Below are positions 10,436 through 44,175 of a stretch of 60,442 nt of DNA, piece by piece. The position numbers and the translations under genes were made by a program. The notes beneath the pieces were generated by a model that had not been told where the DNA came from, searched no databases, and saw only the letters and a list, made by a program, of their open reading frames with translations. The first letter of the stretch is position 1, and each line of letters starts with the position of its first letter. Origin of the DNA: an uncultured Methanosarcinales archaeon (GTDB lineage Archaea; Nanobdellota; Nanobdellia; Woesearchaeales; JANQNQ01); the NCBI GenBank assembly GCA_964550525.1, contig CAZJZJ010000003.1, forward strand, positions 1-60,442. Direction: 5' to 3'.

Positions 10436-10459
10436 GCTATTTTTTATCCAAAAACCAAT

Positions 10460-11398
10460 ATGGTTTCAGAGGAAAAGAAAAAGGACCTGGAGAAGCAAGG
10501 ATATAGGATTGTAGGTAATCATAGTGCTATTAAAGTATGTATGTGGACAAAGAAAGCTGTAAGGCGTGAAGATGTTTGTTACAAAAACACATTCTATGGA
10601 ATACAGACCTGGCGTTGTATACAGATGACCCCTGCATTACATGTGTGTACGCATAGATGTCAATGGTGTTGGAGGGATATTGAGTTTACTAATCCAGAAT
10701 GGGTTGGACCCATTGATGAACCTGAAGATATTGTTGAAGGATGTATCAAAGCACATATTAAATATATGTATGGTTTTGGAGGGAATGAAAAAAGAGATGA
10801 GAAAAGGTATGAAGAAGCTTTGAAGCCATTGCATTTTGCTATTAGCCTTTCAGGAGAACCTACTTTTTATCCTAAATTGCCTGAACTGATAAATGAGATA
10901 CATAAAAGAGGTATGACTAGTTTTTTAGTTACTAACGGGACTAATCCGAGGATTTTGAAAAAACTTGTGGACAATCAACCTACACAGCTTTACATTACAG
11001 TACCTGCTCCTGATAAAGAGACCTACATTAAAGCGTGTACACCTTTGATTAAAGACGGTTGGGAAAAGATTATGGAAAGTTTAAGTTTGATTTCTAAATT
11101 TAAAAGGAATGTAATCAGGTTAACTCTTGCTAAAGATGTTAATATGATTAAGCCTGAGAAATATGCTGAATTGATAAAGAAGTTTAATCCTATGTACGTG
11201 GAAGCTAAGGCATATGTTTGGGTTGGATACAGCAGGGAAAGATTGAATATTGAGAATATGCCACGTCATCATGAAATTATAGAGTTTGCTAAGAAGATTG
11301 AAGAGAATACTGATTACAAAATAATTGATGAAAAAGAAGAGAGTAGGGTTGTGTTGTTGGCGAAGGAAGACAGAGAAGATAGGAAGATGGAGTTCTAA
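10460..11398 (+). CDS. taw1: tRNA 4-demethylwyosine synthase (radical SAM, TYW1/Taw1)
   Basis: CTHRCQWCWR radical-SAM cluster, SLSGEPTFYP, FLVTNGT; archaeal Taw1 size. Confidence 0.85.
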   Translation: MVSEEKKKDLEKQGYRIVGNHSAIKVCMWTKKAVRREDVCYKNTFYGIQTWRCIQMTPALHVCTHRCQWCWRDIEFTNPEWVGPIDEPEDIVEGCIKAHIKYMYGFGGNEKRDEKRYEEALKPLHFAISLSGEPTFYPKLPELINEIHKRGMTSFLVTNGTNPRILKKLVDNQPTQLYITVPAPDKETYIKACTPLIKDGWEKIMESLSLISKFKRNVIRLTLAKDVNMIKPEKYAELIKKFNPMYVEAKAYVWVGYSRERLNIENMPRHHEIIEFAKKIEENTDYKIIDEKEESRVVLLAKEDREDRKMEF

Positions 11399-28266: not shown

Positions 28267-29919
28267 TTATTTATGATAAATTAAGTTAAATATTTCCGAA
28301 ATATTAAGTTCTAGTGCTGCCACAGGCATCTCAAGACCAAAATTAACCAGGACCTCAGGATTTATTTCACCTATATAAGCAACCTTCTTCTGGTTTACAA
28401 TTACCCTACCAACTCTTCCTTTGATAAAAGAAGGATGGTCAGCTTCTATGATCTCATAACTCAGATTTAGGGCCCTCATCAAAGCATCCAGAACCTGCCT
28501 CAATTCAGTTAGATCTGCTTCAGAATGAGATGAAACTACAGCTAATCTTTGAAACTCTTTAGCTCCCATCTCTGTTTTATTGTCCTTCTTAAAAACAGTA
28601 CCGATCTCAAACAACCTCTGTGGATATTCATGATGCTTATTCTCTGAAAGCACCTGTATTAAAGAAGGGATAATCCAGTTCCTAAGTACATTATACTCGC
28701 TAGTCAGAGCATTCTCAAGCTCAATATAATCTAGGTTAAGGTTCATCTTTGTTGTTATACTATCCTTATCAGTGATATGATAAGTGCATGTTTCTAGTAA
28801 TTGTAACCCTGTAAGCAGATGTGCAATCTTATTCACAAACTGGCTGAACTTTGATTCACTGCCAATAGTAGATATGCTTGGTATCTCTGGCACTAGGTTT
28901 TCATAACCATAAGCAATAGCTATATCCTCAGCAATATCAGACAGATGCAATATGTCTGCCCTGTAAGCAGGAACCAGCACATGACCTTTTTCATAACCAA
29001 AACCCATCCTTCCTAGAAGCTTTTTTGCTTCGGTCTCTTTTAGGTTAAGCCCTATGAGTTTGTTCACATAGTTTAGATCGAATTTCATCTTTTGTGGGCT
29101 TAGGTTTGGTGTGGTTATTTTTTTGTCTGGGTAAAGCAAATCAACACTATAAATATCTCCCCCCATGTCTGCAAACATTGTGACAAATATATTCAAAGCG
29201 ATCTGTACATTGTTAAGGTCTGTACCTGTGCATTCTATAAAGGCTTCTTTTGTTGTCTCATCGATCTTACCTGTATCTTGGGAATTTGTATAAGGCAGCA
29301 TTGACAATACAGAACCTTTATCATCTATATAGCAAGGATACTTCTTCCATCCTTCAGCAACAAAGCTGTATTTTTTCCCAGTGGGATGCGTCCTTTCAAC
29401 CTGCGCTCCAGTCATCTCTCTGTCATAACCAAGTGGCTTGAACTTGATTTCCTTAAGGTCTTTAGCAACATACTTAATAGGAAACTTGATGACATCCATA
29501 GGATACAACCCATAGCATGACTTTCTTCTGTTCCTGCCATGTGTAGCTGCAAGCTTCTCCTGTATCTGCATCACTTCCCTTATCCTTTCATCATTAAATA
29601 TAACATTCTTTACTATAGCGCAGGCAGTATAGGGCCTCATAGTAACTGATTTATCAACCGTTATCTTTTTTCCACTTTTCTTAACCTTATACTTCCTTAA
29701 GCCTGTCTTAACTCCAATAAAAGAAGAAAATGCGCGAGCAAAACCCTGCTCGCTTAACATGTCTGGCCTGTCTGGAAATACCTCTACATGGATCTCGTTG
29801 CCTTCAATACTCTCAAGGTCTGTACCCAACATGGAAATACGGTCCTTGAGCTTTTCTAAAGGCAATTTCTTTCCTACAAGTTTCTCAAAAACCTGTTTAT
29901 TTAATGTAACTGTCGGCAT
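28267..29919 (-). CDS. pheT: Phenylalanine--tRNA ligase beta subunit (archaeal type)
   Basis: MPTVTLNKQVFEKLVGKKL...; 550 aa archaeal B3/4-B5 layout. Confidence 0.9.
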   Translation of the reverse strand: MPTVTLNKQVFEKLVGKKLPLEKLKDRISMLGTDLESIEGNEIHVEVFPDRPDMLSEQGFARAFSSFIGVKTGLRKYKVKKSGKKITVDKSVTMRPYTACAIVKNVIFNDERIREVMQIQEKLAATHGRNRRKSCYGLYPMDVIKFPIKYVAKDLKEIKFKPLGYDREMTGAQVERTHPTGKKYSFVAEGWKKYPCYIDDKGSVLSMLPYTNSQDTGKIDETTKEAFIECTGTDLNNVQIALNIFVTMFADMGGDIYSVDLLYPDKKITTPNLSPQKMKFDLNYVNKLIGLNLKETEAKKLLGRMGFGYEKGHVLVPAYRADILHLSDIAEDIAIAYGYENLVPEIPSISTIGSESKFSQFVNKIAHLLTGLQLLETCTYHITDKDSITTKMNLNLDYIELENALTSEYNVLRNWIIPSLIQVLSENKHHEYPQRLFEIGTVFKKDNKTEMGAKEFQRLAVVSSHSEADLTELRQVLDALMRALNLSYEIIEADHPSFIKGRVGRVIVNQKKVAYIGEINPEVLVNFGLEMPVAALELNISEIFNLIYHK

Positions 29920-29940
29920 TTTTTGTTTTTGCTTTTATTT

Positions 29941-30711
29941 TTATTCGCTAAAGTCTGTTCTGTGTGTAACTAACCTCTTTTTTAAGATCATGTCCCACAA
30001 CTCAAGTTTGAAATTCTCAGATGTACCATCGTAAACAGCGTTAACAGTCAAAGCCTTTCTTAATGATTTACCTCTTGCTAAAGGAGTTGTACTGTTAAAT
30101 CTGCCTTTAATTAAGGTATACTCGTTAGTTGTTTCACTTTGACCAGAGTCATATAAAAACAATCTTAACTCTGGTTCGATTGCTGTATCCCCATCATTGA
30201 CAATAGTGAACCTAAACTTATCAAGAATACCCCCACTGAAGTCCAATTGGTCTGCTGCAAGTGTATAACCGTCTTTAGTGGTATATGTATTTGCAAGAAG
30301 ATTTGAAACCTTAATGTTGGATGTATCAACATCTGTGGTTGTACCTCCGGTTACTGTTGCCCCACCCGAACTATTTGTTACTGTTTTCAAAGCGCATTTA
30401 GCTGCAGAATCCTCTTCAGTACCATCTGAACACACATATTTAGTTATAGTAACAGTTGTATCAGTACATACTGGAGCTTCTGGACAGCTCTGGTTTGTGT
30501 CGCACACTGGGCAAACAGCACATTCTTCGCACTGAGGACATTTCACATCTGTGCAATCCTTTGTTACACCACCTAAAAAGTATAGCCCATAGCCAACCCC
30601 TGCTATGACTAAAAATATCAACAAAGTACCTATACTTATGTTTTTTTCAAGCAATCTCTTATGTGCAGATGCTTTATACCTTCTATCTGGACCGAATATA
30701 TCGTCTTTCAT
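29941..30711 (-). CDS. Single-pass membrane protein with a Cys-rich stalk and beta-rich ectodomain, function unknown
   Basis: TM helix IGTLLIFLVIAGVGYGLYFLGG, then CTDVKCPQCEECAVCPVCDTNQSCPEAPVC. Confidence 0.55.
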   Translation of the reverse strand: MKDDIFGPDRRYKASAHKRLLEKNISIGTLLIFLVIAGVGYGLYFLGGVTKDCTDVKCPQCEECAVCPVCDTNQSCPEAPVCTDTTVTITKYVCSDGTEEDSAAKCALKTVTNSSGGATVTGGTTTDVDTSNIKVSNLLANTYTTKDGYTLAADQLDFSGGILDKFRFTIVNDGDTAIEPELRLFLYDSGQSETTNEYTLIKGRFNSTTPLARGKSLRKALTVNAVYDGTSENFKLELWDMILKKRLVTHRTDFSE

Positions 30712-30752
30712 TCACACCACCTGTTTTGTTTGTTTTTTAATTAATTGTTTAA

Positions 30753-32291
30753 TTACAATAACCATGCCTTTGTTTCACGTAACTGCCTCAGATCATTTTT
30801 ATAAAGATCACGGATATCAGTTATACCATAAACACCAGTGATAATCCTATCTAAACCAGGCCCCCAAGCAAGTACAGGTATATCTTCTCCAAGAAGAGGT
30901 TTGACTACCTCTGGCCTGAATACTCCTGCTGCTATGACTTCAATCCATTTTTTATGCACTGGATCATAAACATCGCCTTCAACACTTGGTTCTGTATATG
31001 GGAAATAAGCAGGTCTAAACCTAACCTTTTTATAACCCATTTTCATTGCAAACTCTTTTAGATAACCAAGCAGATGCCTAAAATTTGCATCTGGGTCTAT
31101 AACTATGCCTTCTGTCTGATTAAATTCAAATAAATGATGAGCATCTAATGTTTCGTTTCTAAAACATTTACCTATAGCAAAGAATTTTGCTGGAAGTTCT
31201 GTTTTTTTTAGCGCTGCTAATGTCCTTGAACTAAGGACTGTTGTATGTGGCCTCATAACATTCTTCTTGGCTTCTTGTTCTGACCATTTATATTGCCAAC
31301 CCTTACTACCAGTAGTCCAACCATTCTCGTGAGTTTGTTTGATTCTATTTATTAAGCTTTTATCCAAAAGCTTGCCAAATTTTGGGTCTTTGATATAAAA
31401 GGTATCTTGAAGTTCGCGTGCAGGATGATCCTGTGGAACAAATAAAGTATCAAAGTTCCATAAGCTTGTCTGCAATAATGGTCCAGTCATCTCCTTAAAG
31501 CCCATATCAAGCCAAATCCTTCTTGCATACTCTATAGCTTCATTCACAAAATGCCTCTTACCTAGATAAACCTTAGGAACATTAATCCCAACATCATAGG
31601 CTCTGATATCACTATTCTTCCATTCACCAGTTTTTATCATCTTCGGAGTTAACCTATCGATCACATCACCTTGTTTTATACCTATCTTAAGTAGCTTTTT
31701 ACCGAGTTCAGTTAATTCTGCAAACTTAAGCTTATTAAGTTCAATTTTTGCAATCTGTTTACGTTTTTTTAGGTTATCTAAAGCAAACTTCTGTTCTGGT
31801 GATAGGTTCTTTGTTTCAACTGGGAATTTAAGTTTAAAGAATTGTTGTTCTAAAGAAGGTTTTGATAATAGTTTTTTACCGTTATCAGTTATTTTTGCAT
31901 ATAGCTTATTTTTTTTCTTTTGAATAGTAATAGCTGCTTTTCTCTTTAAAACACCTATAGAGATATTGACTTCATCCTTTTCTATACATGCTTGTTTTTG
32001 AATTTGATCTATAGATTTTTCTGCTTTCTCAATAGTTTTTAGGAATCTATACTCTGGTAATCCTTGTTTAAGGTATTTAAGCCCATTCTCACCAAGATCA
32101 ACTACTTCCTTAACCTCCTCCCTAAGGTTGATTATTTTTTTATTCTGTAACCACTGCAAACCACGCATAACCTCTACATCCTTCAATGTAGATGCCTTGA
32201 CAATACCTTCAAACAAGCTAGTTTTAGCTATAAGAGGCAGTACTTCACGTTCATACTTGCTTAATGTTGCAATAAGCTTGGTATTGTCCAT
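30753..32291 (-). CDS. pheS: Phenylalanine--tRNA ligase alpha subunit (archaeal/eukaryal type)
   Basis: HPARELQDTFY, FRNETLDAHHLFEFNQ, class II motif 3 region GPGLDRI. Confidence 0.9.
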   Translation of the reverse strand: MDNTKLIATLSKYEREVLPLIAKTSLFEGIVKASTLKDVEVMRGLQWLQNKKIINLREEVKEVVDLGENGLKYLKQGLPEYRFLKTIEKAEKSIDQIQKQACIEKDEVNISIGVLKRKAAITIQKKKNKLYAKITDNGKKLLSKPSLEQQFFKLKFPVETKNLSPEQKFALDNLKKRKQIAKIELNKLKFAELTELGKKLLKIGIKQGDVIDRLTPKMIKTGEWKNSDIRAYDVGINVPKVYLGKRHFVNEAIEYARRIWLDMGFKEMTGPLLQTSLWNFDTLFVPQDHPARELQDTFYIKDPKFGKLLDKSLINRIKQTHENGWTTGSKGWQYKWSEQEAKKNVMRPHTTVLSSRTLAALKKTELPAKFFAIGKCFRNETLDAHHLFEFNQTEGIVIDPDANFRHLLGYLKEFAMKMGYKKVRFRPAYFPYTEPSVEGDVYDPVHKKWIEVIAAGVFRPEVVKPLLGEDIPVLAWGPGLDRIITGVYGITDIRDLYKNDLRQLRETKAWLL

Positions 32292-32325
32292 TTCTTACCC
32301 TCTTTGCTGTGAAAAGTATTTTGAT

Positions 32326-33186
32326 TTATATATCTTTCTCTTTAACAAGCTGATCTATAAGAAAATCGCTTTCTTTTGAAGCTTTTCTCCTAAAGTCTCC
32401 TAAAAACATTCCTGATCCTTTAAAGTAGCTAATAAACGCTTTTTTATCCTTCTTATTGATTATTCTTTGAAGTTTTTTAGCGCTCTTCATGAATTGTTTA
32501 ATGCTTTCTTTTGCTTTTGGGTTCAACATCTCAATATCAGCGTACAAACTAGGGTCCTGGTTAAGTATCCTACCAACCATATCCATCCTGATTTTGTATA
32601 TTGGACTTGTGTACTCTATACTTTTATTTACATCTACATTGAGTTCCTTTAAAGCATTACCAATAACCATATTACTAAAATGAGTTATGCCCTGTATCAC
32701 TGACATCAATTTATCATGCTCTCCAGGGGTTGTAATTTTGACCTTTGCTTTATTCTTTTGTAAGATTGATTTTAACCAAGGCAACCATTTCTTACCACGA
32801 GCTGGGCAAAGTACCACTGTCTGTTTATTTAGAGAACTTACAGAAGGTCCAAAAACAGGATGCATCCCAATAACTTCACACTTAGCATACTTAAGCATAA
32901 CTTTAACAGGTTCGACCTTGATAGAAGTAAGGTCTGTTAGCAACCCCTGCTTTTTAATCAAAGGTGCAACCTTTTTGATAACTTCCAATGTTTTACTAAT
33001 AGGCACTGTAATAATACATATATCTACTTTTCTAGCACATTCTTCTGGAGTAAGTTTAGTTGTTCTACTAGCAATAAGAACTTTATAGCCTTGTTTCTCA
33101 AAGAACCTCTTAAACCATTGTCCCATCTGGCCTGTACCGCCAATGATACCAATTATTGGTTTAACTTGTTTTTTCGCCATTTTCAA
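32326..33186 (-). CDS. tyrA: Prephenate dehydrogenase
   Basis: IGIIGGTGQMGQWF Rossmann, HPVFGP, EHDKLMSVIQGITHF. Confidence 0.85.
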   Translation of the reverse strand: MKMAKKQVKPIIGIIGGTGQMGQWFKRFFEKQGYKVLIASRTTKLTPEECARKVDICIITVPISKTLEVIKKVAPLIKKQGLLTDLTSIKVEPVKVMLKYAKCEVIGMHPVFGPSVSSLNKQTVVLCPARGKKWLPWLKSILQKNKAKVKITTPGEHDKLMSVIQGITHFSNMVIGNALKELNVDVNKSIEYTSPIYKIRMDMVGRILNQDPSLYADIEMLNPKAKESIKQFMKSAKKLQRIINKKDKKAFISYFKGSGMFLGDFRRKASKESDFLIDQLVKEKDI

Positions 33187-34250
33187 CCTTTCAACGCTTT
33201 TTGTTTAAGTAAAGAATCATAAAGCACAATGGAAACCATTGCTTCAACCACTGGTACAACCCTTGGGCAGATACATGGATCATGCCTGCCTTTTATTTGT
33301 ATCTTCTTTTTCCTGCCTTTTAAATCCAATGTCCATTGTGGTTTTGCTATTGACGAAGTTGGTTTAACTGCAACCCTAATTACAATAGGCATACCCGTGG
33401 AGATACCACCGATTATACCACCTGCATTATTGGTCTTTGTAAGTATAAGGTTACCCTTTTTTATAAAAAGGTCATTGTTTTCAGAACCCTTCATCTTTGC
33501 TGCTTTAAACCCAGAACCAATTTCTACACCTTTAACAGCTCCGATTGACATCAATGCCTTAGCTAACTCCGCATCAAGTTTACCAAAAACAGGCTCACCT
33601 AACCCAGGAAGCACGCCTTCAGCAATAACCTCAACTATACCTCCTACTGAGTCACCTTGTTTCTTTGTCTCTAAAATAAGATGTTCCATCTTTTTGGCAG
33701 CTTCTATATCAGGACACCTTATAGGATTCTTATCAATATTGTTAAGGTTAATATTTTTAGCTTTTATGTTACCGATTTCTTTAACATAAGCAGTTACCTT
33801 TACTCCATGACGTTTAAGTTGCTGTAAAGCAAATGCCCCTGCTGCAACCCTTGCAACAGTTTCTCTACCAGAAGCTCTACCTCCACCCCGGTAATCACGA
33901 ATACCATATTTCTTAAGATAAGTAAACCCTGCATGACCTGGCCTAAAGATGTTTTTTAATTTTTCATAATCCTTGGATTTCATACCTTTATTATAAACAA
34001 CCAGGCAAATAGGTGTACCAAGTGTCTTGCCTTCAAAAAGACCTGAAAGTACGTGTACCTTATCCTTTTCTTTACGTGCAGTTGTTATTTTACTCTGCCC
34101 AGGCTTTCTTTTATCCAATAACTTTTGAATCCCAGCAATATCAAATTTCAATCCAGGTTTAACCCCATCCATAACTACACCTACTGCTTCTCCATGTGAC
34201 TCACCAAAGGTTGTAATCCGAAACATTTTTCCAAAATTATTGCCAGTCAT
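33183..34250 (-). CDS. aroC: Chorismate synthase
   Basis: FRITTFGESHG, GGGRASGRETV, RHDPCI. Confidence 0.95.
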   Translation of the reverse strand: MTGNNFGKMFRITTFGESHGEAVGVVMDGVKPGLKFDIAGIQKLLDKRKPGQSKITTARKEKDKVHVLSGLFEGKTLGTPICLVVYNKGMKSKDYEKLKNIFRPGHAGFTYLKKYGIRDYRGGGRASGRETVARVAAGAFALQQLKRHGVKVTAYVKEIGNIKAKNINLNNIDKNPIRCPDIEAAKKMEHLILETKKQGDSVGGIVEVIAEGVLPGLGEPVFGKLDAELAKALMSIGAVKGVEIGSGFKAAKMKGSENNDLFIKKGNLILTKTNNAGGIIGGISTGMPIVIRVAVKPTSSIAKPQWTLDLKGRKKKIQIKGRHDPCICPRVVPVVEAMVSIVLYDSLLKQKALKG

Positions 34251-34251
34251 T

Positions 34252-34758
34252 TTATTCCTTAAGGTATTCTCTTATTTTTTGCACTACTTGCGGTATTGTT
34301 AATCTAGTTGTATCAATTGCAGCATCAGCTGCTTCCAAGTAAAGCGGCATGCGTTTAGTTAACACTTCTTCAACTTCTTCTGTAAAAGATTTGTCTTTTG
34401 TTAAAGACGGCCTATCTGCAGCACCTTCTATTCTTTGTATAATTGTTTTTATGTCTGCTGTAAGCAGGATAATTTTTGAGTTTTGTTTAAGGTTAGCTAT
34501 GTTCCTTTTATCCTCTATAACTCCTCCGCCTGTATCAACCACACAGTTATCTAGCTCTTTTATTTCTTCTATTACTTCTGTCTCCCTTTCCCTGAAATAA
34601 TCCCAACCTTTCTTCTTCACAGTTTCATTGATCGTAGCGTTTTCTTTTTCAACCACTAGATTATCCGTTGAAAGATACTTCAAATCAAGTTCATCTGCTA
34701 GCTGTTTTGATACTGATGTTTTACCAGTTCCCCTATAACCAATGATTATGATTTTCAT
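34252..34758 (-). CDS. aroK: Shikimate kinase, P-loop AroK type
   Basis: IIGYRGTGKTSV, FRERETEV, DTGGGV, DRPSL. Confidence 0.85.
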   Translation of the reverse strand: MKIIIIGYRGTGKTSVSKQLADELDLKYLSTDNLVVEKENATINETVKKKGWDYFRERETEVIEEIKELDNCVVDTGGGVIEDKRNIANLKQNSKIILLTADIKTIIQRIEGAADRPSLTKDKSFTEEVEEVLTKRMPLYLEAADAAIDTTRLTIPQVVQKIREYLKE

Positions 34759-36011
34759 TTTAGTTTTCCCAAGGCTTTCCAGAAACCAGGAAATGACTTA
34801 TTCACACAACCTGGGTTCTTGATTTTAATCCCAGGAATCTTTAGCCCTACAATAGCAAAGCTCATTGCCATACGATGATCATCATAGGTCTCAATATCTG
34901 TACTTTTAAGTTCACCTGGTTCTGATTCAATTGTTATTGAATCCTCTGTTGTCTTGACTTTTGCACCGAGTTTAGTCAATTCTTTCTCAAGCGCAGCTAA
35001 CCTATCTGTTTCCTTAACACGTAGATTAGCTACATTGGTGATCTGGGTTTTGCCTTTTGCAAACAAAGCAACAATTGCAAGTGTTTGAACTACGTCTGGC
35101 ATTGAATTCATGTCAATAGTAATACCATTAAGGTCTTTACCTACTACTTCAATAAAGGTCTTGCTAGATTTAACCTCACAACCCATCTGTTTCAGTACAT
35201 TCACAAATTGCACATCACCTTGCTTTGATTTTAATGAAAGGTTATTAATTCTAACCCTGCCTTTTGTTATTGCTGCAGCTGCAAAAAAGTAAGAAGCATT
35301 AGAAGCATCACTTTCTATAGTGTAGGTCTTTGCCTTATATCTTTGCCCAGGTTTCACTACAAAGCCTTGATAGTTTTGGTTTTCCACATCTACACCAAAA
35401 TCTTGCATTATATCTAAGGTTAGATCTACATATGGTTTTGAAGTTAGTTCACCAATTACTTTTAATCTTACCTCGTTATTAGCATAAGGTGCACACATCA
35501 GTATAGAAGAGATATACTGGCTGCTCATGTTTCCCTTTATTTGTGCTATACCTCCAGGAAACTCACCACCATATACCTTTAAAGGAGGGCAACCTGTACT
35601 ACAATCTGTCTCCACACCCAGTTGCCTCAATGCATCTAATAGATCACCTAAAGGCCGTTTCTTCATTCTTTCGTTGCCAGTTATTGTTGTATTACCAAAA
35701 GCAAGCGCAGCATAGGTTGTAAGAAAACGTACAGCTGTACCAGCATTACCTAAGTATACTGGTTGTTTCGGTGCGATTGCTTGTAAACCAATACCATGCA
35801 CCTCTAGACTATCCTTAATCTGCTTAATTCTAACCCCAAAGTTTTGTAGTGCGTTAACCATATATTTAGTATCATCACTAAATAAAGGATTCTTCAGCAA
35901 GGAATTACCTTCAGCAAGCGCAGCTATCAATAATGCTCTATTTGTGTAACTTTTAGAACCAGGTATAGTGATATCTGCATTAATCTTGTCAACTGCTCCT
36001 ATAGGTTTCAT
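34755..36011 (-). CDS. aroA: 3-phosphoshikimate 1-carboxyvinyltransferase (EPSP synthase)
   Basis: PGSKSYTNRALL, LGNAGTAVRFL, KETDRLAAL, DDHRMAMSFA. Confidence 0.95.
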   Translation of the reverse strand: MKPIGAVDKINADITIPGSKSYTNRALLIAALAEGNSLLKNPLFSDDTKYMVNALQNFGVRIKQIKDSLEVHGIGLQAIAPKQPVYLGNAGTAVRFLTTYAALAFGNTTITGNERMKKRPLGDLLDALRQLGVETDCSTGCPPLKVYGGEFPGGIAQIKGNMSSQYISSILMCAPYANNEVRLKVIGELTSKPYVDLTLDIMQDFGVDVENQNYQGFVVKPGQRYKAKTYTIESDASNASYFFAAAAITKGRVRINNLSLKSKQGDVQFVNVLKQMGCEVKSSKTFIEVVGKDLNGITIDMNSMPDVVQTLAIVALFAKGKTQITNVANLRVKETDRLAALEKELTKLGAKVKTTEDSITIESEPGELKSTDIETYDDHRMAMSFAIVGLKIPGIKIKNPGCVNKSFPGFWKALGKLK

Positions 36012-36826
36012 TTTTTTTGTTTAAGGTGTTTAAAAACAACATTCTCCATAAAGTTATACTCAGGGGTTTTACCTGTCCACAACCTAAAACTTTCTAGGCC
36101 TTGATGTATTAACCAGGGAATACCGTTGATTGCAGTACAGCCTTTTTTATTAGCATCCCTAATAAGTTTTGTCTTAAGTGGGTTGTATATTGCATCGAGA
36201 ACAACTACATTATTCAATAGAGTGGTATCAATAGGAGATTTTCCTTTGTTTTCCCCCATACCCAAGTTAGTTGTGTTGATAATAATATCTGGCTTAGATA
36301 TCTTGAAGTTATATAATTCACCATAATGGCACTTGAATCTTTTACCAAGTTTCTTTGCTTTACTAAATGTCCTATTCAGTATTGTGATAGACCCAGCTTG
36401 CCTTTGCTGCATTGCGTATACAGCTGCACGTGCTGCACCACCTGCACCTAGTACAATAACATTGCTACCCTTAATCAAAGTCTTATCCTCGAGTGTCTTA
36501 ATTATACCAATATAGTCTGTATTATAACCAACTAATTTCCCGTCATCAACAACTATGGTATTAACTGCACCGATGTTGCCTGCATTTACTTCAATCTTAT
36601 CAAGATACTTCATCACTGTTACTTTATGTGGAGAAGTTACATTTGCACCTATAAAATTAAGACCTTTTAACCCCCTAACTGCGTTTTTCAGATCTGTTAC
36701 ATCAAACGCTATATACTGTGCATTAATTTTAAAATGTTCAAACAAGGCGTTATGCATTATAGGGCTTATACTATGCTCAACTGGATGCCCTATAAGCCCG
36801 CAAAGTTGTGTTTCCGATTCGATCAT
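36008..36826 (-). CDS. aroE: Shikimate dehydrogenase
   Basis: LIGHPVEHSISP, NVTSPHK, NTDYIG, LGAGGAARA. Start re-called to MIESETQ (ATG 36826). Confidence 0.9.
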   Translation of the reverse strand: MIESETQLCGLIGHPVEHSISPIMHNALFEHFKINAQYIAFDVTDLKNAVRGLKGLNFIGANVTSPHKVTVMKYLDKIEVNAGNIGAVNTIVVDDGKLVGYNTDYIGIIKTLEDKTLIKGSNVIVLGAGGAARAAVYAMQQRQAGSITILNRTFSKAKKLGKRFKCHYGELYNFKISKPDIIINTTNLGMGENKGKSPIDTTLLNNVVVLDAIYNPLKTKLIRDANKKGCTAINGIPWLIHQGLESFRLWTGKTPEYNFMENVVFKHLKQKK

Positions 36827-36828
36827 TC

Positions 36829-37497
36829 TTACACCCCCATATCTTGCCATATCTTTTTTAATTGCTTAACAGTGATTTGTCCAGATGCAGATTCTTTACC
36901 TTTACTCAAAGAAGCAAAAGTAAGATAACTGCCAAACATTGGAGCTAAAATTCTGCTTAACCTACCTTTTTCACCCATACAAAGAGCGATTATTGGTTTG
37001 TTTTTATTCTTTGCAATCTTTATTAATTCAAACATCTTAATATTGTCGTAAATATAATTAGCTTTCGCAGCTATTTTAACAATATCTGCATTCAGTTTTA
37101 TACTTTTATCCAATGCTTTGGCTAGGTTTTTATCTGTACACCTAAAATTATGAGTTGAGATTATGATTTTAGTTTTTCTTTTATTTTTGATTAGTTGCTT
37201 AATAGTTTTTCTTCCTACAGAAAGCTCAATATCAACATAATCTGCATTAAGCAAGATTGCCTGTTTTAACAAAGAAAGCCTTTCCATTTCTGTACCTTTA
37301 AATCTACCGGCTTCTGCCCTTTTCCTACAAGTCACTATAACAGGTTTTTTTGGTTTTGATAATAGTTTTTTTAAATCAAGATCCTTGATGTAATCGATTC
37401 TTAACTCAATTATATCTGCAAGTTTCTCTGCCTTACTGATATCCAACAAAGCATTTCTCATTGTTGTTGCTGTAATAGGTATACATATCATGTTCAA
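36829..37497 (-). CDS. aroD: 3-dehydroquinate dehydratase, type I
   Basis: IELRIDY, TCRKRAEAG, ISTHNF, KIAAKA; type I layout. Confidence 0.85.
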   Translation of the reverse strand: MNMICIPITATTMRNALLDISKAEKLADIIELRIDYIKDLDLKKLLSKPKKPVIVTCRKRAEAGRFKGTEMERLSLLKQAILLNADYVDIELSVGRKTIKQLIKNKRKTKIIISTHNFRCTDKNLAKALDKSIKLNADIVKIAAKANYIYDNIKMFELIKIAKNKNKPIIALCMGEKGRLSRILAPMFGSYLTFASLSKGKESASGQITVKQLKKIWQDMGV

Positions 37498-38582
37498 CCC
37501 CTTTGCAATGCTTTAAGAACTACGCTGTCAGAGGCGTGAATACTTACCTTGTTACTGACAGTTTTAACCTTACCAATATTTTGCAGCAGAATAAACTGCG
37601 CTTTTTTATTAACTGATTTCTTGTCTTTTCGGATAATTTTAACTATTCTCTCTACAGCTTTTATACCTGCTCTAGTTTCGTAACCAAACTGTTTCATTAA
37701 CTCAATTATCCTAAGTAGCTCTGAACGTTTAAGATAACTCATTTCATTTGCTATCCTTGCTTCAACAACCATGCCTGTTGCTACAGCCTCGCCATGAGCA
37801 AGTTTATAATTGCTTATTATCTCAAGAGCATGGCCTATTGTATGCCCGAAATTCAGGATTTTCCTAAGTTCTTCTTCTTTTTCATCTTTAGCCACCACTT
37901 TAGCTTTTATTTCACACCCTTTCTGGATAAGCATTTCAACTACTGAAGGATCAAGTGATTTGATATTTTCAATATTTTTTTCTATGTAGTCAAAGAAGCT
38001 TTTATCATAAACCAAAGCATACTTAATTACTTCTGCAAGACCGTTAAGGAACTGCCTATAAGGAAGGGTTTTAAGAAACTCTGGATCTATGTAGACTTTC
38101 TTAGGTTGGTAGAATGCGCCGCAAGAGTTCTTACCTTGGCTAAGATCAATTGCTACCTTACCGCCTACAGAGGAGTCAACCATAGCCATAAGTGTAGTTG
38201 GAACCTGCACATAGTTTATTCCACGCATATAAGTAGCTGCTACTAAACCAGCCATATCACCTACAACTCCGCCACCAAATGCAATAATACAGCTTTTACG
38301 GTCTAAACCAATCTCAAAGGTTTCCTCTAATAGCTCACTTAATGATTTAATATTCTTGTTCTGTTCACCTGCTTTAAATGTAATTAAGTGCGTTTCCAAG
38401 CGGGCCTTTTTCATTAAAACCAGTAGATTACTAGCAAGTTCCTTAAGATTTGAGTCAGTGATAATAAGGAACTTATTTCCAAACTGCTTAATATCTTTTA
38501 CAATACTGTAGAATAGCCCATGCTCTATCTGGATGTCATAAGATTTATCTACTTGCTTTTTTAGTTTTAGTTTTATTATCAT
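37494..38582 (-). CDS. aroB: 3-dehydroquinate synthase
   Basis: GGGVVGDMAGLVAATYMRGINYVQVPTTL, SSVGGK, NFGHTIGHALE. Confidence 0.95.
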   Translation of the reverse strand: MIIKLKLKKQVDKSYDIQIEHGLFYSIVKDIKQFGNKFLIITDSNLKELASNLLVLMKKARLETHLITFKAGEQNKNIKSLSELLEETFEIGLDRKSCIIAFGGGVVGDMAGLVAATYMRGINYVQVPTTLMAMVDSSVGGKVAIDLSQGKNSCGAFYQPKKVYIDPEFLKTLPYRQFLNGLAEVIKYALVYDKSFFDYIEKNIENIKSLDPSVVEMLIQKGCEIKAKVVAKDEKEEELRKILNFGHTIGHALEIISNYKLAHGEAVATGMVVEARIANEMSYLKRSELLRIIELMKQFGYETRAGIKAVERIVKIIRKDKKSVNKKAQFILLQNIGKVKTVSNKVSIHASDSVVLKALQRG

Positions 38583-38583
38583 T

Positions 38584-39600
38584 CTACATAGTCCTGCCTA
38601 CAGCTTTTGCAATCGGTTTAAGCTCTTTTACTAGTTTCTTAAAGTTATCTGGTTTAAGGGACTGATCACCGTCACTTACAGCTTCTTCTGGGTGTGGATG
38701 TACTTCTATAATCAGACCATCTGCGCCACAAGCAATAGAAGCTTTTGACATAGGTCCAACAAGATCATACTTGCCTGTACCATGGCTTGGATCAACTATC
38801 ACAGGAAGATGTGATAGTTTCTTTAATGCTGGAACTATATTAAGATCAAGTGTATTCCTAGTGAAATCTGAGAATGTCCTTATACCTCGTTCACATAGGA
38901 TTACGTTTAAGTTACCTTCTGCCATGATATACTCTGCTGCCATAAGGAATTCTTTCATTGTGCAAGACATGCCACGTTTAAGCAGTACTGGCTTTTTTGC
39001 TTTACCAACTGCTTTAAGCAGCTTGAAGTTCTGCATATTCCTTGCACCTAATTGTAGAATATCTGCATATTTTGCAACCAGTTTAACATCAACAGTATCC
39101 ATTACTTCTGTTACTATTGCTAGGCCTGTAGCTTTTGATGCTTTTTTTAGAAGTTTTAAACCTTCTTCTTCCATACCTTGAAAACTGTAAGGAGAGGTTC
39201 TTGGTTTAAAAGCACCACCCCTTAATACAGTTGCACCTGCTGCTTTAACTGCTTTGGCAGTTGCCATAATCTGTTTTTCAGATTCGACTGCGCAAGGACC
39301 AGCCATTATAGTAAGCTTTTTACTGCCTATCTCTGTTCTATTGTTTAGCTTAATCACTGTATCTGCTGGATGAAATTCTCTCGAAGCAAGCTTGTATGGA
39401 GCCAGAACAGGCATAACCTTTTCTACACCTTCTATAGCTTGTAATTGCTCAAGTTGTATCTGCCTTTCATCACCTATCAAACCAATAATTGTCCTTTCTG
39501 TACCTCTAGAAAGATGCGGTTTAAGGCCGTGCCTTTTTATTATTTTTAGTATATGGTTAAGTTGTTTTTCGTTTAATCCTGGTTTTGTTACAATTATCAT
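38584..39600 (-). CDS. aroF: DAHP synthase, class I-beta with an N-terminal ferredoxin-like domain
   Basis: [33 protein letters not shown]. 338 aa, like the Thermotoga type. Confidence 0.9.
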
Positions 39601-40238
39601 TTTTTAGGCACCTTTTTCCAATCATCTAGGAATTTCTTTATACCTTTATCAGTAAGCTCGTGTTTAAACATCTCAGCCAGTACTTTTGGCGGGATTGTAG
39701 CGATATGTGCGCCAAGTGTTGCAGCTTCTCTAACATGATCAAGGTTTCGTACACTAGCTACAATAATCTGTGTATCAAAGTTATAGTTTTTATAGATTTG
39801 GACAATATCTTTTACTATATCCATACCACGTTTACCAATATCATCTAACCGACCTACAAAAGGGCTGACATAGGTTGCGCCTGCTTTTGCTGCGAGCAAT
39901 GCTTGGTTCGCTGAAAAAATAAGTGTTACGTTGGTTTTTATGCCAAGTTTTTTTAATTCTTTTACTGCTTTCATACCTTCATCTGTCATTGGAATCTTGA
40001 TTGTAATGTTTTTGTGGATCTTAGCAAGTGGTTTGGCTTCTTTAACCATGCCTTCTGCATCAAGACTGATTACTTCTGCGCTTATTGGCCCATCTACTAT
40101 GGTTGTTATCTCTTTTACCACTTCTTCGAATATTCTACCTGAACGTGCAATAAGGCTTGGATTGGTAGTTGCACCATCTATCAAGTGAGCATACTTCCTA
40201 ATTTCAGCTGTATCAGCTGTGTCAATAAAAATTTTCAT
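39597..40238 (-). CDS. tal: Transaldolase / fructose-6-phosphate aldolase family
   Basis: [38 protein letters not shown]. Confidence 0.9.
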
Positions 40239-40260
40239 TTTTGAGTAACCTCCATTATGC

Positions 40261-40280
40261 AGCTTTCAAAAATGAAAGCT
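40261..40280 (-). promoter_or_regulatory. Perfect 8-bp intercistronic hairpin between the chorismate mutase and tal genes
   Basis: AGCTTTCA-TTTT-TGAAAGCT, just 5' of the tal SD GGAGGT. Confidence 0.4.
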
Positions 40281-40302
40281 ACGAACGATAGTGAGTATGT
40301 GT

Positions 40303-40584
40303 TCATTTTTTCGTCCTCCTGCTTTGTTTTTGAATTATTTTTGAGTATGAGATTATGGATCTAAATACCTTATTACTAAAAGTAATTGGGATTTTAGCTT
40401 TTTTTGAATAATTTTTAAGCTTGTCAAAGATCTGTTTTTCCCGATGTTTATCCTGAGTCTTTAGTTTGTGTTTTCTCTTGAAACTACTGATTCTTTTTAC
40501 TGTATTTATTCTTTTCACTAAAAGATTAAAAATCTGTTTATCTATTCTATCTATTTGCTTACGAAGCTGGTTTAGTCTTTGCAT
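40303..40584 (-). CDS. Chorismate mutase (AroQ class)
   Basis: LRKQIDRIDKQIFNLLVKR...DKHREKQIFDKL helical AroQ pattern; operon context. Confidence 0.75.
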   Translation of the reverse strand: MQRLNQLRKQIDRIDKQIFNLLVKRINTVKRISSFKRKHKLKTQDKHREKQIFDKLKNYSKKAKIPITFSNKVFRSIISYSKIIQKQSRRTKK

Positions 40585-40596
40585 TTATAAACCCCC

Positions 40597-40854
40597 TTAA
40601 GCAACTTTAGCCCTTATCTGTTTATAAAGTTTACTGGCTAACCTATCCATGTCTGCAATACTTGGCTGCTCCAGGATTGGCTTGCCTTCAGCCCTAGTAT
40701 ACAACCTATCCAATGCCTTTAGTGTTGGTTCAACTCCATTACGCTTAACCAACCATGTCACAAAACAAGGGTATGCTCCAACTAATGTTTGCGCTCTTGG
40801 ATGTATACGCATGGTCCTTGCCATTTTTTTTATGTTTTTTTTGTTTTCTTGCAT
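40597..40854 (-). CDS. Hypothetical 85-aa protein, first cistron of the aromatic operon
   Basis: GGAGG lies 8 nt before the ATG. No motif recognised. Confidence 0.45.
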   Translation of the reverse strand: MQENKKNIKKMARTMRIHPRAQTLVGAYPCFVTWLVKRNGVEPTLKALDRLYTRAEGKPILEQPSIADMDRLASKLYKQIRAKVA

Positions 40855-40870
40855 TTTTCTAGCCTCCTGC

Positions 40871-40955
40871 CTAGTTCTTTTTTGTTTTGAACGTAAGAAC
40901 TAGACATTTTTAAACAATGCTCGGCTGCTTAACCTTTAAATCTAGTTAAGACAGC
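40871..40955 (-). promoter_or_regulatory. Leader RNA with two hairpins and an alternative pairing (candidate attenuator)
   Basis: Hairpin 1 GCTGTCTTAAC/GTTAAGCAGC (40924-40955) abuts the mini-ORF stop. Hairpin 2 CTAGTTCTT/AAGAACTAG (40871-40903). AACTAGA (40941-47) can instead pair with TCTAGTT (40898-904). Confidence 0.45.
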
Positions 40956-41033
40956 TTACCAAAAATAAAAATAGAAACCGCTAACTAAACAAACCTTATT
41001 TCCATTTTCCATACATTGTTTAGTTGCGTTCAT
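40956..41033 (-). CDS. Candidate aromatic leader peptide MNATKQCMENGNKVCLVSGFYFYFW
   Basis: The ATG lies 24 nt after consensus TATA 41058-65. The last six sense codons are TTC TAT TTT TAT TTT TGG. Sits directly upstream of the shikimate/aromatic operon. Confidence 0.55.
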   Translation of the reverse strand: MNATKQCMENGNKVCLVSGFYFYFW

Positions 41034-41057
41034 ATTAGGATTTAGTGTAAGTAATGG

Positions 41058-41069
41058 TATATAAATGTT
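41058..41069 (-). promoter_or_regulatory. BRE/TATA promoter of the aromatic operon leader
   Basis: Minus strand AACATTTATATA, 24 nt to ATG 41033. Confidence 0.65.
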
Positions 41070-41089
41070 TTGGTGTGAGAAGAGGTTAG

Positions 41090-41893
41090 TTAGTATTTAC
41101 TTTTATAACTACCAAATACCTTAACCTTGCCACCCAAGATACCAAGAATCTCCTTGACAAATTTGTCTTCTCTGTGACCTTCTAGATCTATAAAAAAGAC
41201 ATATTCGCCGAGTTTACGTTTAGAAGGCCTGGATTCTATTTTAGTTAGATTTATTTTAAGATGCGCAAACATACCTAGAAGATCATAAAGCAACCCTGGC
41301 CTATCTTCACCTGGATCTATCATAATGCTTGTTTTATCCCTACCTGTCTTAGGAGAATCGTTTTTTGAAATAACAAGGAACCTAGTGATATTGTTTGAAT
41401 TGTCTTGTATTGCTTCTCTGATTATTTCCTGGTTATATATCTTTGCAGAAGTAGCAGAGATGATAGCACCTTCATTTACGTTTCTGCTTTCTTTAATCTG
41501 TTCAGCTGATTGGCTGTTACTACCAGTCATGATAATGTCTGCTTCTGGAAGATGCCTTCTTATAAATTTCTCACATTGAGCATATGTCTGTGGATGAACA
41601 TAAAGGCGCTTAATATCCTTAATATTGCCATGGCCTGCAAGATTATGCACTATTGGTAAAACCAATTCAGCTTTAATCTTTATATCAAACTCAAGAAGTG
41701 CATCATAGGTTAGACCAACTGAACCAGATTCAGAGTTTTCTAAAGGAACTACACCAAGTTTAGATTTTCCTGTAGCAACTGCTTCAAATACATTATAGAT
41801 AGTTCTACAAAAAAGCATCTCTGCTTCTTTATCATACTTTAAAGCAGCTTCATGGCAAAATGTGCCAGCTGGCCCTAAACATGCAATTTTCAT
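41090..41893 (-). CDS. pheA: Prephenate dehydratase with a C-terminal ACT domain
   Basis: MKIACLGPAGTFCHEAA, ENSESGSV, TRFLVIS, ESRPSK. Confidence 0.9.
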   Translation of the reverse strand: MKIACLGPAGTFCHEAALKYDKEAEMLFCRTIYNVFEAVATGKSKLGVVPLENSESGSVGLTYDALLEFDIKIKAELVLPIVHNLAGHGNIKDIKRLYVHPQTYAQCEKFIRRHLPEADIIMTGSNSQSAEQIKESRNVNEGAIISATSAKIYNQEIIREAIQDNSNNITRFLVISKNDSPKTGRDKTSIMIDPGEDRPGLLYDLLGMFAHLKINLTKIESRPSKRKLGEYVFFIDLEGHREDKFVKEILGILGGKVKVFGSYKSKY

Positions 41894-41915
41894 AGAAAAA
41901 TGGATAAAAAGACTA

Positions 41916-41927
41916 TTAATAAATGTT
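41916..41927 (-). promoter_or_regulatory. BRE/TATA promoter of pheA
   Basis: Minus strand AACATTTATTAA, 22 nt to ATG 41893. Confidence 0.6.
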
Positions 41928-41928
41928 A

Positions 41929-43065
41929 CTAAATACCAGAATAGGTTTTAGGTTTTGCCTTTTTGTTAAGTATACAGAACCCTGCATCTGCCAAAGCCTG
42001 CATCTCGTTCTCACCTGGGTAGATTGTAAAGCCAATTTTATACTGCCTAAATTTCTTCTTAATGTCTGATACAACCATTTTAGAGTGTGCAATGCCCCCT
42101 GTAAGAATAATCTGATCTATCTTTTCTCTGTTAAAACATACAAACCTGGAAAAGATCTCAGATGCAATCTGGTTGATCATGTTATCATAAACAAGTTTAG
42201 CATACTTATTACCTTTCTTGACTTGTCTACAGAACCTATGCACATCACTATAACCAAAATATGACATTAGACCACCTTCACCCTTAATCTTACGTAACAT
42301 CTTGTCTTTAGCAGAATTTATTGATTTCTTTGTAATCTTCTTTTTGCTAAGAATCATCTTTGTATACAACTCAATAGTTTGCCTCATTGGCAAAGACATT
42401 GCTCTTTCTGGAGTAAAAGGCCCATTCCCATAAACCGCATTATTTACGTAAACAATTCTGCCCTTATAACTCGCAGAAACAGATATACCTCCACCCATGT
42501 GAGCAATTATAAGATTAAGTGCCCCAGGTTTTTTTCTTTTCTCTTTTGCATACCTTGTAACACATGCCTTTACATTCAATGCGTGAAAGACACTCTTATT
42601 TTCTATCTCCTTTAATCCTGTAAGCCTGAACTCAGGTGCAATCTCATCTACAACAACTGGATCAAGAACATACGCCTTAATACCAAGCCTGTCTGCTATC
42701 TCTTTAGCAATAATAGCCCCTAAATTTGATGCATGTTCACCTTGTACACCTTTTTTCAGATGTTTTACCATTAAGTTATTTACTTTGTATACACCGCTTT
42801 CAACAGGATAGATAAGACCACCACGTGCCATTATAACCTTGATTGACCTTGAATTTATTTTTTGTTTTTTTAAGAAATCCAGTACTGCATTTTTTCTAAG
42901 CTTGTACTGATCCATTATATGCTTAAATCTCTTGAAGTTTTTATCCCTTGAATGATCAATAGATTCTATTTTAGATTCCTTCCCACCAACAAATATTCCA
43001 GTTTTCGTAGAAGTAGAACCAGGGTTAATAACCAGTACAACTCCTCTTTTGTTTGTCTTTTTCAT
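41929..43065 (-). CDS. buk: Butyrate kinase family acyl-phosphate kinase
   Basis: VLVINPGSTSTK, HASNLGA, AHMGGGIS, TGGIAHS. Confidence 0.85.
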   Translation of the reverse strand: MKKTNKRGVVLVINPGSTSTKTGIFVGGKESKIESIDHSRDKNFKRFKHIMDQYKLRKNAVLDFLKKQKINSRSIKVIMARGGLIYPVESGVYKVNNLMVKHLKKGVQGEHASNLGAIIAKEIADRLGIKAYVLDPVVVDEIAPEFRLTGLKEIENKSVFHALNVKACVTRYAKEKRKKPGALNLIIAHMGGGISVSASYKGRIVYVNNAVYGNGPFTPERAMSLPMRQTIELYTKMILSKKKITKKSINSAKDKMLRKIKGEGGLMSYFGYSDVHRFCRQVKKGNKYAKLVYDNMINQIASEIFSRFVCFNREKIDQIILTGGIAHSKMVVSDIKKKFRQYKIGFTIYPGENEMQALADAGFCILNKKAKPKTYSGI

Positions 43066-43993: not shown

Positions 43994-44147
43994 GTTTTTA
44001 CTTCAAGTTTTTACTTAAAGTATGGGTAAAAACGAAGTACTACTTAATATATGTTACGGTTTTTTACCCCCACGCAGTGCGTTCATTCCAAAAAAGTGAA
44101 AAACGTTGTGCACTCCAAAGTAAAAACTGGGAGTTCTCATTTTTTAC
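43994..44147. repeat. Seven dispersed copies of GTTTTTAC / GTAAAAAC in the trmB leader
   Basis: Copies at 43994, 44007, 44059 and 44139 (GTTTTT(T)AC-like). Copies at 44026, 44096 and 44120 are the complement orientation. Confidence 0.5.
44054..44140 (-). CDS. Candidate leaderless mini-ORF MRTPSFYFGVHNVFHFFGMNALRGGKKP
   Basis: The ATG lies 23 nt after consensus TATA 44164-71. 28 codons. Confidence 0.35.
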   Translation of the reverse strand: MRTPSFYFGVHNVFHFFGMNALRGGKKP

Positions 44148-44163
44148 TAATAAACTTAACTGG

Positions 44164-44175
44164 TATATAAATGTT
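44164..44175 (-). promoter_or_regulatory. BRE/TATA promoter upstream of the trmB leader
   Basis: Minus strand AACATTTATATA, abutting the acs stop. Confidence 0.6.

Follow-up and report, generated by a model that had tools for sequence, protein, structure and literature searches.

Could an archaeon set the expression of an amino acid operon by letting a ribosome sense the supply of charged tRNA on a short leader peptide? Leader-peptide attenuation is a textbook mechanism in bacteria, and the question is raised for Archaea by a 60,442-nt contig (CAZJZJ010000003.1, assembly GCA_964550525.1; the whole stretch is referred to here as the window) from an uncultured archaeon, in which a short open reading frame (ORF) ending Phe-Tyr-Phe-Tyr-Phe-Trp precedes an operon for aromatic amino acid biosynthesis. 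A first-pass annotation of the sequence had proposed a ribosome-mediated attenuator at this place, working on the logic of the bacterial pheL and trpL leaders. Comparison with related genomes strongly supports a conserved, putatively leaderless aromatic leader peptide. In our reading, to which we give a probability of roughly 0.6, the element acts in cis as a leader-peptide sensor: it reads the charging of aromatic tRNAs and so controls the aro-tyrA-pheST operon; attenuation itself we infer from the arrangement of the sequence.

The leader occupies a gap of 235 nt on the minus strand between the prephenate dehydratase gene and orf85, and this gap holds the promoter, the leader ORF and the hairpins. 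In the direction of transcription, the features are as follows.

41893-41090, minus strand: prephenate dehydratase gene, the upstream neighbour of the leader
41058-41069, minus strand: promoter P1, with the B-recognition element (BRE)/TATA sequence AACATTTATATA
40956-41033, minus strand: leader ORF of 25 codons plus stop, MNATKQCMENGNKVCLVSGFYFYFW, read from the translation and from relatives; it matches the covariance model R1 described below with E ~1e-15
40979-41028, minus strand: hairpin H0 inside the leader ORF, -13.3 kcal/mol, z -3.8, with 0 of 200 shuffles as good
40959-40976, minus strand: codon run TTC TAT TTT TAT TTT TGG (F Y F Y F W)
40924-40955, minus strand: hairpin H1, 11 bp with one bulge, -11.8 kcal/mol, z -2.3
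40910-40919, minus strand: motif M, CATTGTTTAA, defined from alignments and located 4 nt 3′ of H1
40868-40906, minus strand: hairpin H2, 12 bp, -14.0 kcal/mol, z -5.7, with 0 of 200 shuffles as good
40863-40867, minus strand: GGAGG Shine-Dalgarno sequence of orf85
40597-40854, minus strand: orf85, the first cistron after the leader
28267-40854, minus strand: the presumed controlled operon, with genes assigned through Pfam

Promoter P1 lies 24 nt before the leader ATG and, as the first-pass annotation had stated, the ORF translates into a peptide ending FYFYFW, with the codon run itself containing T5-A-T5 (40971-40961). That annotation had also called this spacing typical of leaderless genes in the window; the same BRE/TATA consensus indeed stands 20-27 nt before the ATG of at least 11 of the 65 called genes, which makes a leaderless start of the leader plausible. 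The stop codon occupies 40958-40956, and in the window H1 begins at the very next nucleotide. The two hairpins that had been noted as 10 and 9 bp are both present, the first with 11 bp and one bulge (40955-40924) and the second as a fold that extends to 12 bp (40906-40868). The T5-A-T5 tract looks like the double T5-7 tracts, with no hairpin, that follow the trmB stop codon in these genomes.

By Pfam, the co-directional and closely spaced genes of the operon are, in order, orf85, chorismate mutase, transaldolase, DAHP synthase, DHQ synthase, DHQase, shikimate dehydrogenase, EPSP synthase, shikimate kinase, chorismate synthase, prephenate dehydrogenase, phenylalanyl-tRNA synthetase (PheRS) alpha, orf256 and PheRS beta; their products constitute the Phe and Tyr pathway, together with PheRS. 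Judged by its genes, the host is an archaeon: PheRS subunits of archaeal type, TrmB and an RPA-like protein are all encoded in the window, the ribosomal proteins L34e, L32e and L19e adjoin the same operon in syntenic relatives, and the closest named homologues of the window dehydratase come from ‘Nanoarchaeota’ and ‘Woesearchaeota’ archaea. No T tract separates P1 from the stop codon of the dehydratase gene, and read-through into the leader is therefore likely.

How far can the window alone carry the argument? Aromatic runs of at least six codons occur five times in the six frames of its 60 kb, and we estimate the chance of such a run in an intergenic region of this size at roughly 1%, which is suggestive and not decisive. 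The caution of the first-pass annotation, that TTT/TAT frames arise easily in AT-rich DNA, thus holds for the window, as those five runs illustrate; where it would extend to the leader, it gives way to the relatives, which indicate that the leader is not a product of chance. The uncertainty of the estimate is what made comparison with other genomes necessary, and the comparative data settle the question.

Because orf85 matches only itself (no other homologue among 5.8 billion proteins), it could not serve as an anchor, and relatives were fetched through homologues of prephenate dehydratase (proteins 50-59% identical). A metagenome scan with a dehydratase profile gave at least about five close relatives among the matches listed. 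A genome scan with DAHP synthase, an enzyme of bacterial type, returned nearly all bacteria and one useful locus, L003. In all ten DPANN loci that include the region, an aromatic-tailed short ORF lies directly before the first operon gene, which is the conserved mini-ORF that the first-pass annotation had suggested looking for. The leader ORFs of the relatives, each followed by a stop codon, are as follows.

L172, 1512-1592: MNILERINGVLNEFFLDKSLFYFYFW
L174, 757-837: MNIIERMHIVLNEFFLNNSFFYFYFW
L175, 1121-1201: MKILEGINIILNEFFLDRKFFYFYFC
L173, 1165-1242: MIVLERINAVLDEFFLDRSCYFYFW
L167, 2907-2984: MIALERTNIVMLKEFFLDVSFFYFC
L166, 1225-1284: MAHEKALNKDFFLVPYFYF
L084, contig begins within the ORF: ...LNEFFLGQNFFYFYFW
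L003, 102-194: ...SSFLFFENIFYFLFFK
L087, 2453-2527: MASIGFAFYRLFSSFKYFFFYFKY

The association is strict. Screening the intergenic regions of 14 DPANN loci (126 strands) for ATG-initiated ORFs of 12-40 codons with at least four aromatic residues among the last six returned nine ORFs, all on the sense strand directly before the first aro gene, and none on the other 117 strands; L084 carries the same tail and stands outside the count of nine, its contig beginning within the ORF. The operons of L166 and L172-L175 begin with transketolase, those of L003, L087 and L167 with DAHP synthase, that of L084 with DeoC and that of the window with orf85/chorismate mutase; since the first gene varies in this way, the leader element tracks the start of the operon and not one particular gene. 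A TATA box lies 21-26 nt before the leader ATG in nine loci, with no clear TATA box at this distance in L087.

The pattern of change within the leader is equally informative. Alignments show that all insertions and deletions within the ORF preserve the frame, their lengths being multiples of three; eight relatives share an unchanged YFYF core, with synonymous changes between TAT and TAC and between TTT and TTC; and the stop codon may be TAA, TAG or TGA. The N-terminal halves of the peptides are wholly different between lineages and the aromatic tail is kept, and the 130-nt leader can still be aligned across loci with a dehydratase only 50-59% identical. These are the marks of a translated ORF under selection for its terminal codons rather than for a peptide fold. 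Of the two points that the first-pass annotation had drawn from the window, the tie to the end products of the operon is well supported by these conserved ORFs, and the predicted leaderless start agrees with their TATA-to-ATG spacing.

Two RNA helices accompany the ORF. RNAalifold and the covariance model R1 define H0 and H1; H0 and motif M had both been overlooked in the first-pass annotation, whose set of hairpins was to this extent incomplete, and the covariation of the hairpin after the stop codon, for which it had proposed a search, is seen in the relatives. The core of H0 is formed by AACUAAACAA (41025-41016) pairing with UUGUUUAGUU (40992-40983), and the hairpin spans roughly codons 3-6 to codons 14-18; in relatives, CUAGAAAG pairs with CUUUCUAG at the same position. 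Reading by hand gives three compensatory pairs in H0 between the window and L172, the model alignment setting the window one base out of register in this helix, and the H0 duplex has a mean z score of -4.4 in the family. In 10 of 10 leaders, no more than about 2 nt lie between the end of the stop codon and the start of H1, whose folding energies range from -7.6 to -15.4 kcal/mol and whose z scores range from -1.5 to -4.7.

R1 finds all eight alignable leaders, including the untrained L084 (E about 1e-11). The alignment was fitted to the R1 structure and its counts of pairing and covariation lean towards that structure: 87.9% of cells are paired, against 35-61% when the partners are slid by 1-3 columns, the covariation score exceeds that of all 500 shuffles, and five of the seven modelled H1 pairs carry compensatory changes. 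Wobble cells comprise 22 G·U and 1 A·C, and this excess of G·U indicates that the pairing acts in the sense RNA and not in the DNA or an antisense transcript. Motif M is found in most members, is CATTGTATTAA in L087 and is TATA-like in L084, L167 and the window, where it reads TTTAAAAA. The third hairpin is less constant. H2 abuts at its 3′ end the GGAGG of orf85 (40867-40863); comparable hairpins occur in L174 and L175 and a weaker one in L173, and H2 is absent in three of eight relatives (L172, L166 and L084).

How might such a leader work? P1 would yield a leaderless RNA whose first 78 nt encode the 25-residue peptide, the last six codons of which specify Phe, Tyr and Trp, end products of the pathway, in front of an operon that also encodes PheRS. 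With charged aromatic tRNAs plentiful, the ribosome would reach the stop codon and depart, H0 and H1 would fold around the exposed U-rich codon run, and the transcript would be ended or silenced ahead of the first structural gene. With charged aromatic tRNAs scarce, the ribosome would wait on the aromatic codons, holding open both the 3′ arm of H0 and the base of H1 and covering the U tract, and more polymerase or mRNA would proceed into the operon. Ribosome stalling as the signal, premature termination as the output, in place of translation or RNA stability, and the direction of the response are all parts of this scheme that we infer. The geometry is kept across the family, with two sense-strand hairpins at fixed distances from the aromatic run.

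Within this scheme we favour direct occlusion, in which the stalled ribosome would shield H1, the U tract or both from termination of the oligo-U or FttA/aCPSF1 type; polarity in archaea has been attributed to FttA/aCPSF1 (PMC12548453, PMC11616081). A trp-style switch, in which antiterminator and terminator hairpins alternate, is less favoured than occlusion, since duplex tests of all segment pairs yielded no alternative helix that is conserved. For segments B and D the pairing is weak (mean z -1.25), and strong pairing of A with M is confined to the window. The trpL/pheL-type switch of the first-pass annotation is consequently not supported, lacking both such a helix and a bacterial-type terminator. 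Its heptamers AACTAGA (40947-40941) and TCTAGTT (40904-40898) are complementary in the window; as a conserved pair of mutually exclusive folds they are not supported, the pairing being peculiar to the window and H2 being lost in three of the eight relatives.

Several observations weigh against the proposed sensor. In the segment-by-segment search for an alternative helix, only H0 and H1 themselves consistently beat shuffled sequences. A scan of the leader for bacterial-type terminators found none, and such terminators are no commoner here than in shuffled sequence; H1 is followed by CAUUGUUUAA, with only U3-4 runs after it, and T5 tracts appear further downstream of H1 in four of eight relatives. 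The bacterial criterion, a GC-rich hairpin with a U run, may not apply to an archaeon. Modelled ribosome positions produced no consistent shift of Shine-Dalgarno accessibility in the DPANN family. Archaeal RNA polymerase terminates at oligo-T tracts without hairpins, which makes a part for H0 and H1 less certain, and if T5-A-T5 terminates efficiently, the decision would precede the decoding of those very codons. Depletion of T runs on the sense strand of genes, examined as a sign of oligo-T termination, gave a deficit that base composition explains.

A further set of adverse points concerns promoters and assemblies. Between the leader and the first gene, six of eight relatives contain a second BRE/TATA-like element (AAAnTTTAWAWA), 42-83 nt before the ATG of that gene, at these positions.

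L172, 1655-1668: second BRE/TATA-like element
L173, ~1345: second BRE/TATA-like element
L174, ~930: second BRE/TATA-like element
L175, ~1362: second BRE/TATA-like element
L166, ~1346: second BRE/TATA-like element
L167, ~3012: second BRE/TATA-like element

These elements suggest tandem promoters in the relatives; together with the TATA-like motif M they mean that the operon may not depend on read-through from P1, and part of its transcription may bypass the leader. All sequences are metagenome assemblies, and two other assemblies of the same organism (JGI 3300009405 and ENA ERZ23499057) are broken at the leader ATG. The break falls at 41020-41034 of the window (L163:3874, L164:3874 and L165:1), where the contig end and the next contig start share the 15-mer TATGAACGCAACTAA, which includes the leader ATG. 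The promoter upstream of the break is homologous to that of the relatives, so that the window appears to be joined correctly here; differences between strains at the leader junction may account for the break.

Does the arrangement recur outside DPANN? Four further contigs, with a dehydratase closest to Methanoregula proteins and in one case a gene for proteasome-activating nucleotidase, carry aromatic leader ORFs before an operon of DeoC, DeoC, type II DHQ synthase, prephenate dehydrogenase and prephenate dehydratase. Their positions and C-terminal tails, each followed by a stop codon, are as follows.

L115, 6367-6550: Methanoregula-family aro leader, tail ...FGFFSFYYRFYYWY
L150, 6368-6551: Methanoregula-family aro leader, tail ...FGFFSFYYRFYYWY
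L135, 6282-6486: Methanoregula-family aro leader, tail ...GYFSFFSYFGFGYYPWYR
L108, 4588-4756: Methanoregula-family aro leader, tail ...RFFGCYFWYY

On sequence, this family is a second, independent one, unrelated to the DPANN leaders. No TATA-like element was found between the leader and the first gene in any of the four, and the L135 tail is without a T5 tract, which indicates that conservation falls on the aromatic codons and not on the U tracts. Two of the four (L150 and L108) have a pyrimidine stretch directly 3′ of the stop codon that can pair with GGGGAGG/GGGGGAG, the Shine-Dalgarno-like sequence of the first gene, which suggests translational attenuation in this family. The longer, aromatic-tailed ORF overlaps, in the +1 frame, a leaderless ORF of 21 codons (MQDECYSIHEGFFAREGLYLH and variants); the overlap holds a conserved hairpin with a U6-7 loop, GGGUUUUUUC, and both frames are conserved, an internal start or a frameshift at the U run being a possibility. 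The genus Methanoregula has cultured species, so that the question is directly testable.

The best-surviving alternative retains the stalling sensor of aromatic tRNA charging and moves its output to translation initiation of the first cistron or to mRNA stability, as in erm/cat-type translational attenuation. The Methanoregula pairings just described speak for it, as does the position of H2 against the GGAGG of orf85 in the window, and hairpin-dependent termination is not established in archaea. It is nevertheless unlikely for the DPANN family: there H1 lies 60-220 nt from the first gene, and in the window and its DPANN relatives H1 is far from the Shine-Dalgarno sequence; Shine-Dalgarno sequestration, considered as a candidate in its own right, was rejected on the inconsistent effect of the modelled ribosome positions; and H2 is lost in three of eight relatives.

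The second BRE/TATA-like elements and the TATA-like forms of motif M raise another alternative, in which P1, the mini-ORF and the U tract with H1 would be a self-contained gene for a micropeptide or small RNA, and the operon would be transcribed from its own promoter (motif M or P2). The resemblance of T5-A-T5 to the terminators after trmB would fit such a gene. We regard this as quite improbable. What the lineages have in common is the aromatic tail only; their N-terminal halves differ, and any likeness there is accounted for by pairing in H0. L003 and the four Methanoregula leaders are, moreover, without a TATA-like element between the leader and the first gene, and the strict tie to operon starts, whatever the first gene, together with codons that match the products of the pathway, points to control in cis.

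That H1 is instead a palindromic DNA operator for the adjacent TrmB-family regulator, with the T-rich run as terminator or spacer and the ORF incidental, is very improbable. In its favour, the immediate upstream neighbour of the leader is a trmB-family gene in every syntenic relative, H1 lies just upstream of the TATA-like motif M, and T-rich frames readily give Phe and Tyr, as the five runs in the window illustrate. Against it, the H1 arms covary and keep no fixed half-site, though TrmB is 76% identical between the window and L166; the 22-to-1 ratio of G·U to A·C means pairing only in RNA of the sense strand; a double T tract upstream of P1 already belongs to trmB; and the fixed distance to the leader ATG, the in-frame indels, the synonymous aromatic codons and the L135 tail lacking a T5 run all stand against it.

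A leader-peptide sensor of aromatic tRNA charging is therefore the reading that we retain. We advance more tentatively its boldest form, in which true leader-peptide attenuation would have arisen at least twice in Archaea, in DPANN Nanoarchaeota and in Methanoregula, with the Phe/Tyr stalling codons of the DPANN leaders themselves the oligo-U termination signal. If this form is correct, a hungry ribosome would switch the operon on by hiding a terminator tract and the foot of the adjacent hairpin, which would make the leader an attenuator without an antiterminator helix, operating on a leaderless mRNA. If the sensor itself is real, the conserved leader family would offer a natural substrate for the study of ribosome effects on archaeal termination, whether oligo-U or FttA/aCPSF1, and some DPANN archaea, usually seen as metabolically host-dependent, would regulate a complete aromatic pathway by their own supply.

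Around the leader, gene order and content differ between the lineages. Most relatives have ACS and TrmB, then 240-370 nt of intergenic sequence, then transketolase N and C, the shikimate genes and finally prephenate dehydrogenase, prephenate dehydratase, PheRS alpha and PheRS beta. Where transketolase is present, one of two enzyme pairs follows it, DAHP synthase with DHQ synthase or archaeal DeoC with type II DHQ synthase. The former, with its bacterial-type DAHP synthase, is carried by L167, L173, L174, L175, L087, L003 and the window, at an operon position that the latter occupies in L166, L172 and L084; closely related lineages have thus exchanged the enzymes for the first two steps of the pathway. 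The window differs in that the dehydratase gene and an acetate-kinase/ROK-like gene (41090-43065) lie between trmB and the leader, and in all relatives the dehydratase gene lies between those for prephenate dehydrogenase and PheRS alpha; by gene order, the dehydratase has been relocated to the operon front in the window. In the window a further gene separates those for PheRS alpha and beta, which are direct neighbours in most of the relatives examined.

29941-30711, minus strand: orf256, inserted between the PheRS alpha and beta genes

A permissive Pfam scan found no match for orf85 or orf256.

The region upstream of trmB has features of its own. An exact second copy of the 15-mer AACATTTATATACCA that overlaps P1 lies just after the ACS stop codon, and a conserved element in front of trmB combines an inverted repeat, GGTAAAAAA/TTTTTTACC, around the TATA-like CGTAACATATATTAAGTAGTAC with a second small hairpin.

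44161-44175: second copy of the 15-mer AACATTTATATACCA; the other copy is at 41055-41069, at P1
about 44001-44070, minus strand: conserved trmB-upstream element of the window
L166, 260-340: trmB-upstream element
L172, 545-625: trmB-upstream element
L173, 195-290: trmB-upstream element
L175, 165-250: trmB-upstream element

This element is probably the trmB promoter with an autoregulatory operator. The second 15-mer would drive a putative leaderless, aromatic-rich ORF of 28 codons, MRTPSFYFGVHNVFHFFGMNALRGGKKP (44140-44054); as a second leader it was rejected, the ORF not being conserved in relatives. A duplication, considered on account of the shared 15-mer and a shared 9-mer, ATGAACGCA, was likewise set aside: 12 of the 15 bases are promoter consensus, and the 9-mer match is expected by chance in 60 kb.

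Bacterial sequences were also considered as a source of the leader. The genome scan with DAHP synthase gave 79 loci, nearly all of them bacterial, whose contigs reach far enough upstream of that gene; in these, three bacterial candidates for an aromatic leader ORF were found, two of them convincing and none DPANN-like, and a bacterial origin was rejected. Ordinary bacterial aromatic leader peptides were seen in L094 (7614-7724), a bacterium with SecA and MnmE, and, upstream of DAHP synthase, in L015 (MDNHPWLFFY) and L054 (MGRSKELPWLFFF). Contig L176 is bacterial (L20, L35 and IF3), and its dehydratase (10001-10810) is 52% identical to the DPANN enzyme, which suggests gene transfer.

How, finally, does the leader compare with known systems? 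Archaeal amino acid operons are known to be under DNA-binding regulators, for example TrpY of Methanothermobacter. The present case shares with TrpY-type control the kind of operon and, in the relatives, a TrmB-family gene beside the leader, and differs from it in that the conserved features are an ORF and sense-strand RNA hairpins and not a DNA site for protein binding. Archaeal regulation has been described as known only at the level of promoter recruitment, and in 2021 archaea were stated to have no known mechanism of antitermination or of transcription attenuation (PMC8448881). Our literature search, which mostly left out subscription journals, found no archaeal precedent for leader-peptide control, in line with the statement of the first-pass annotation that none is established. 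Rfam gave no match in the window or seven relatives at the gathering threshold, and a search of 40500-41400 at E up to 10 returned no leader family, with two weak unrelated matches outside the leader.

The aromatic attenuators of E. coli are pheL before pheA, pheM before pheST, and trpL. Like them, the leader is a short ORF rich in codons for the end products, placed between a promoter and a biosynthetic or tRNA synthetase operon, conserved mainly in its regulatory codons and flanked by RNA hairpins; the joint control of pheST and Phe biosynthesis proposed here mirrors pheM and pheL. Unlike them, it belongs to an archaeal host, with a TATA/BRE promoter and a putatively leaderless ORF; its Phe, Tyr and Trp codons are mixed in one run at the very C-terminus; its hairpins stand at the stop codon and inside the ORF; and it is without a conserved 1:2, 2:3 and 3:4 alternative pairing, a hairpin-plus-U-run terminator or an Rfam leader match. 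The bacterial mechanism is summarised elsewhere (PMC1183508, PMC4007540).

Leaderless leader peptides have been described in bacteria: fourteen are predicted in Deinococcus deserti (PMC4007540), and in mycobacteria polycysteine leaderless short ORFs are Cys-responsive attenuators (bioRxiv 10.1101/834739). As in those leaders, transcription is predicted to start at the AUG, and the codons match the downstream pathway or synthetase. The Deinococcus and mycobacterial leaders use bacterial polymerase, termination and initiation, whereas the archaeal case would need archaeal leaderless initiation and archaeal termination, of the oligo-U or FttA/aCPSF1 kind. In the proposed mode of action, the closest likeness is to tnaC, where the stalled ribosome hides a Rho entry site, and to pyrBI, where a ribosome close behind the polymerase blocks the terminator: in each, the ribosome covers RNA near the end of the leader ORF and no antiterminator hairpin is needed, a type of control that fits the present leader because it has no conserved alternative helix. 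We know of no archaeal equivalent demonstrated for either. Set beside these systems, and on the comparative sequence data, this leader is the strongest archaeal candidate to date for leader-peptide attenuation of the bacterial kind.

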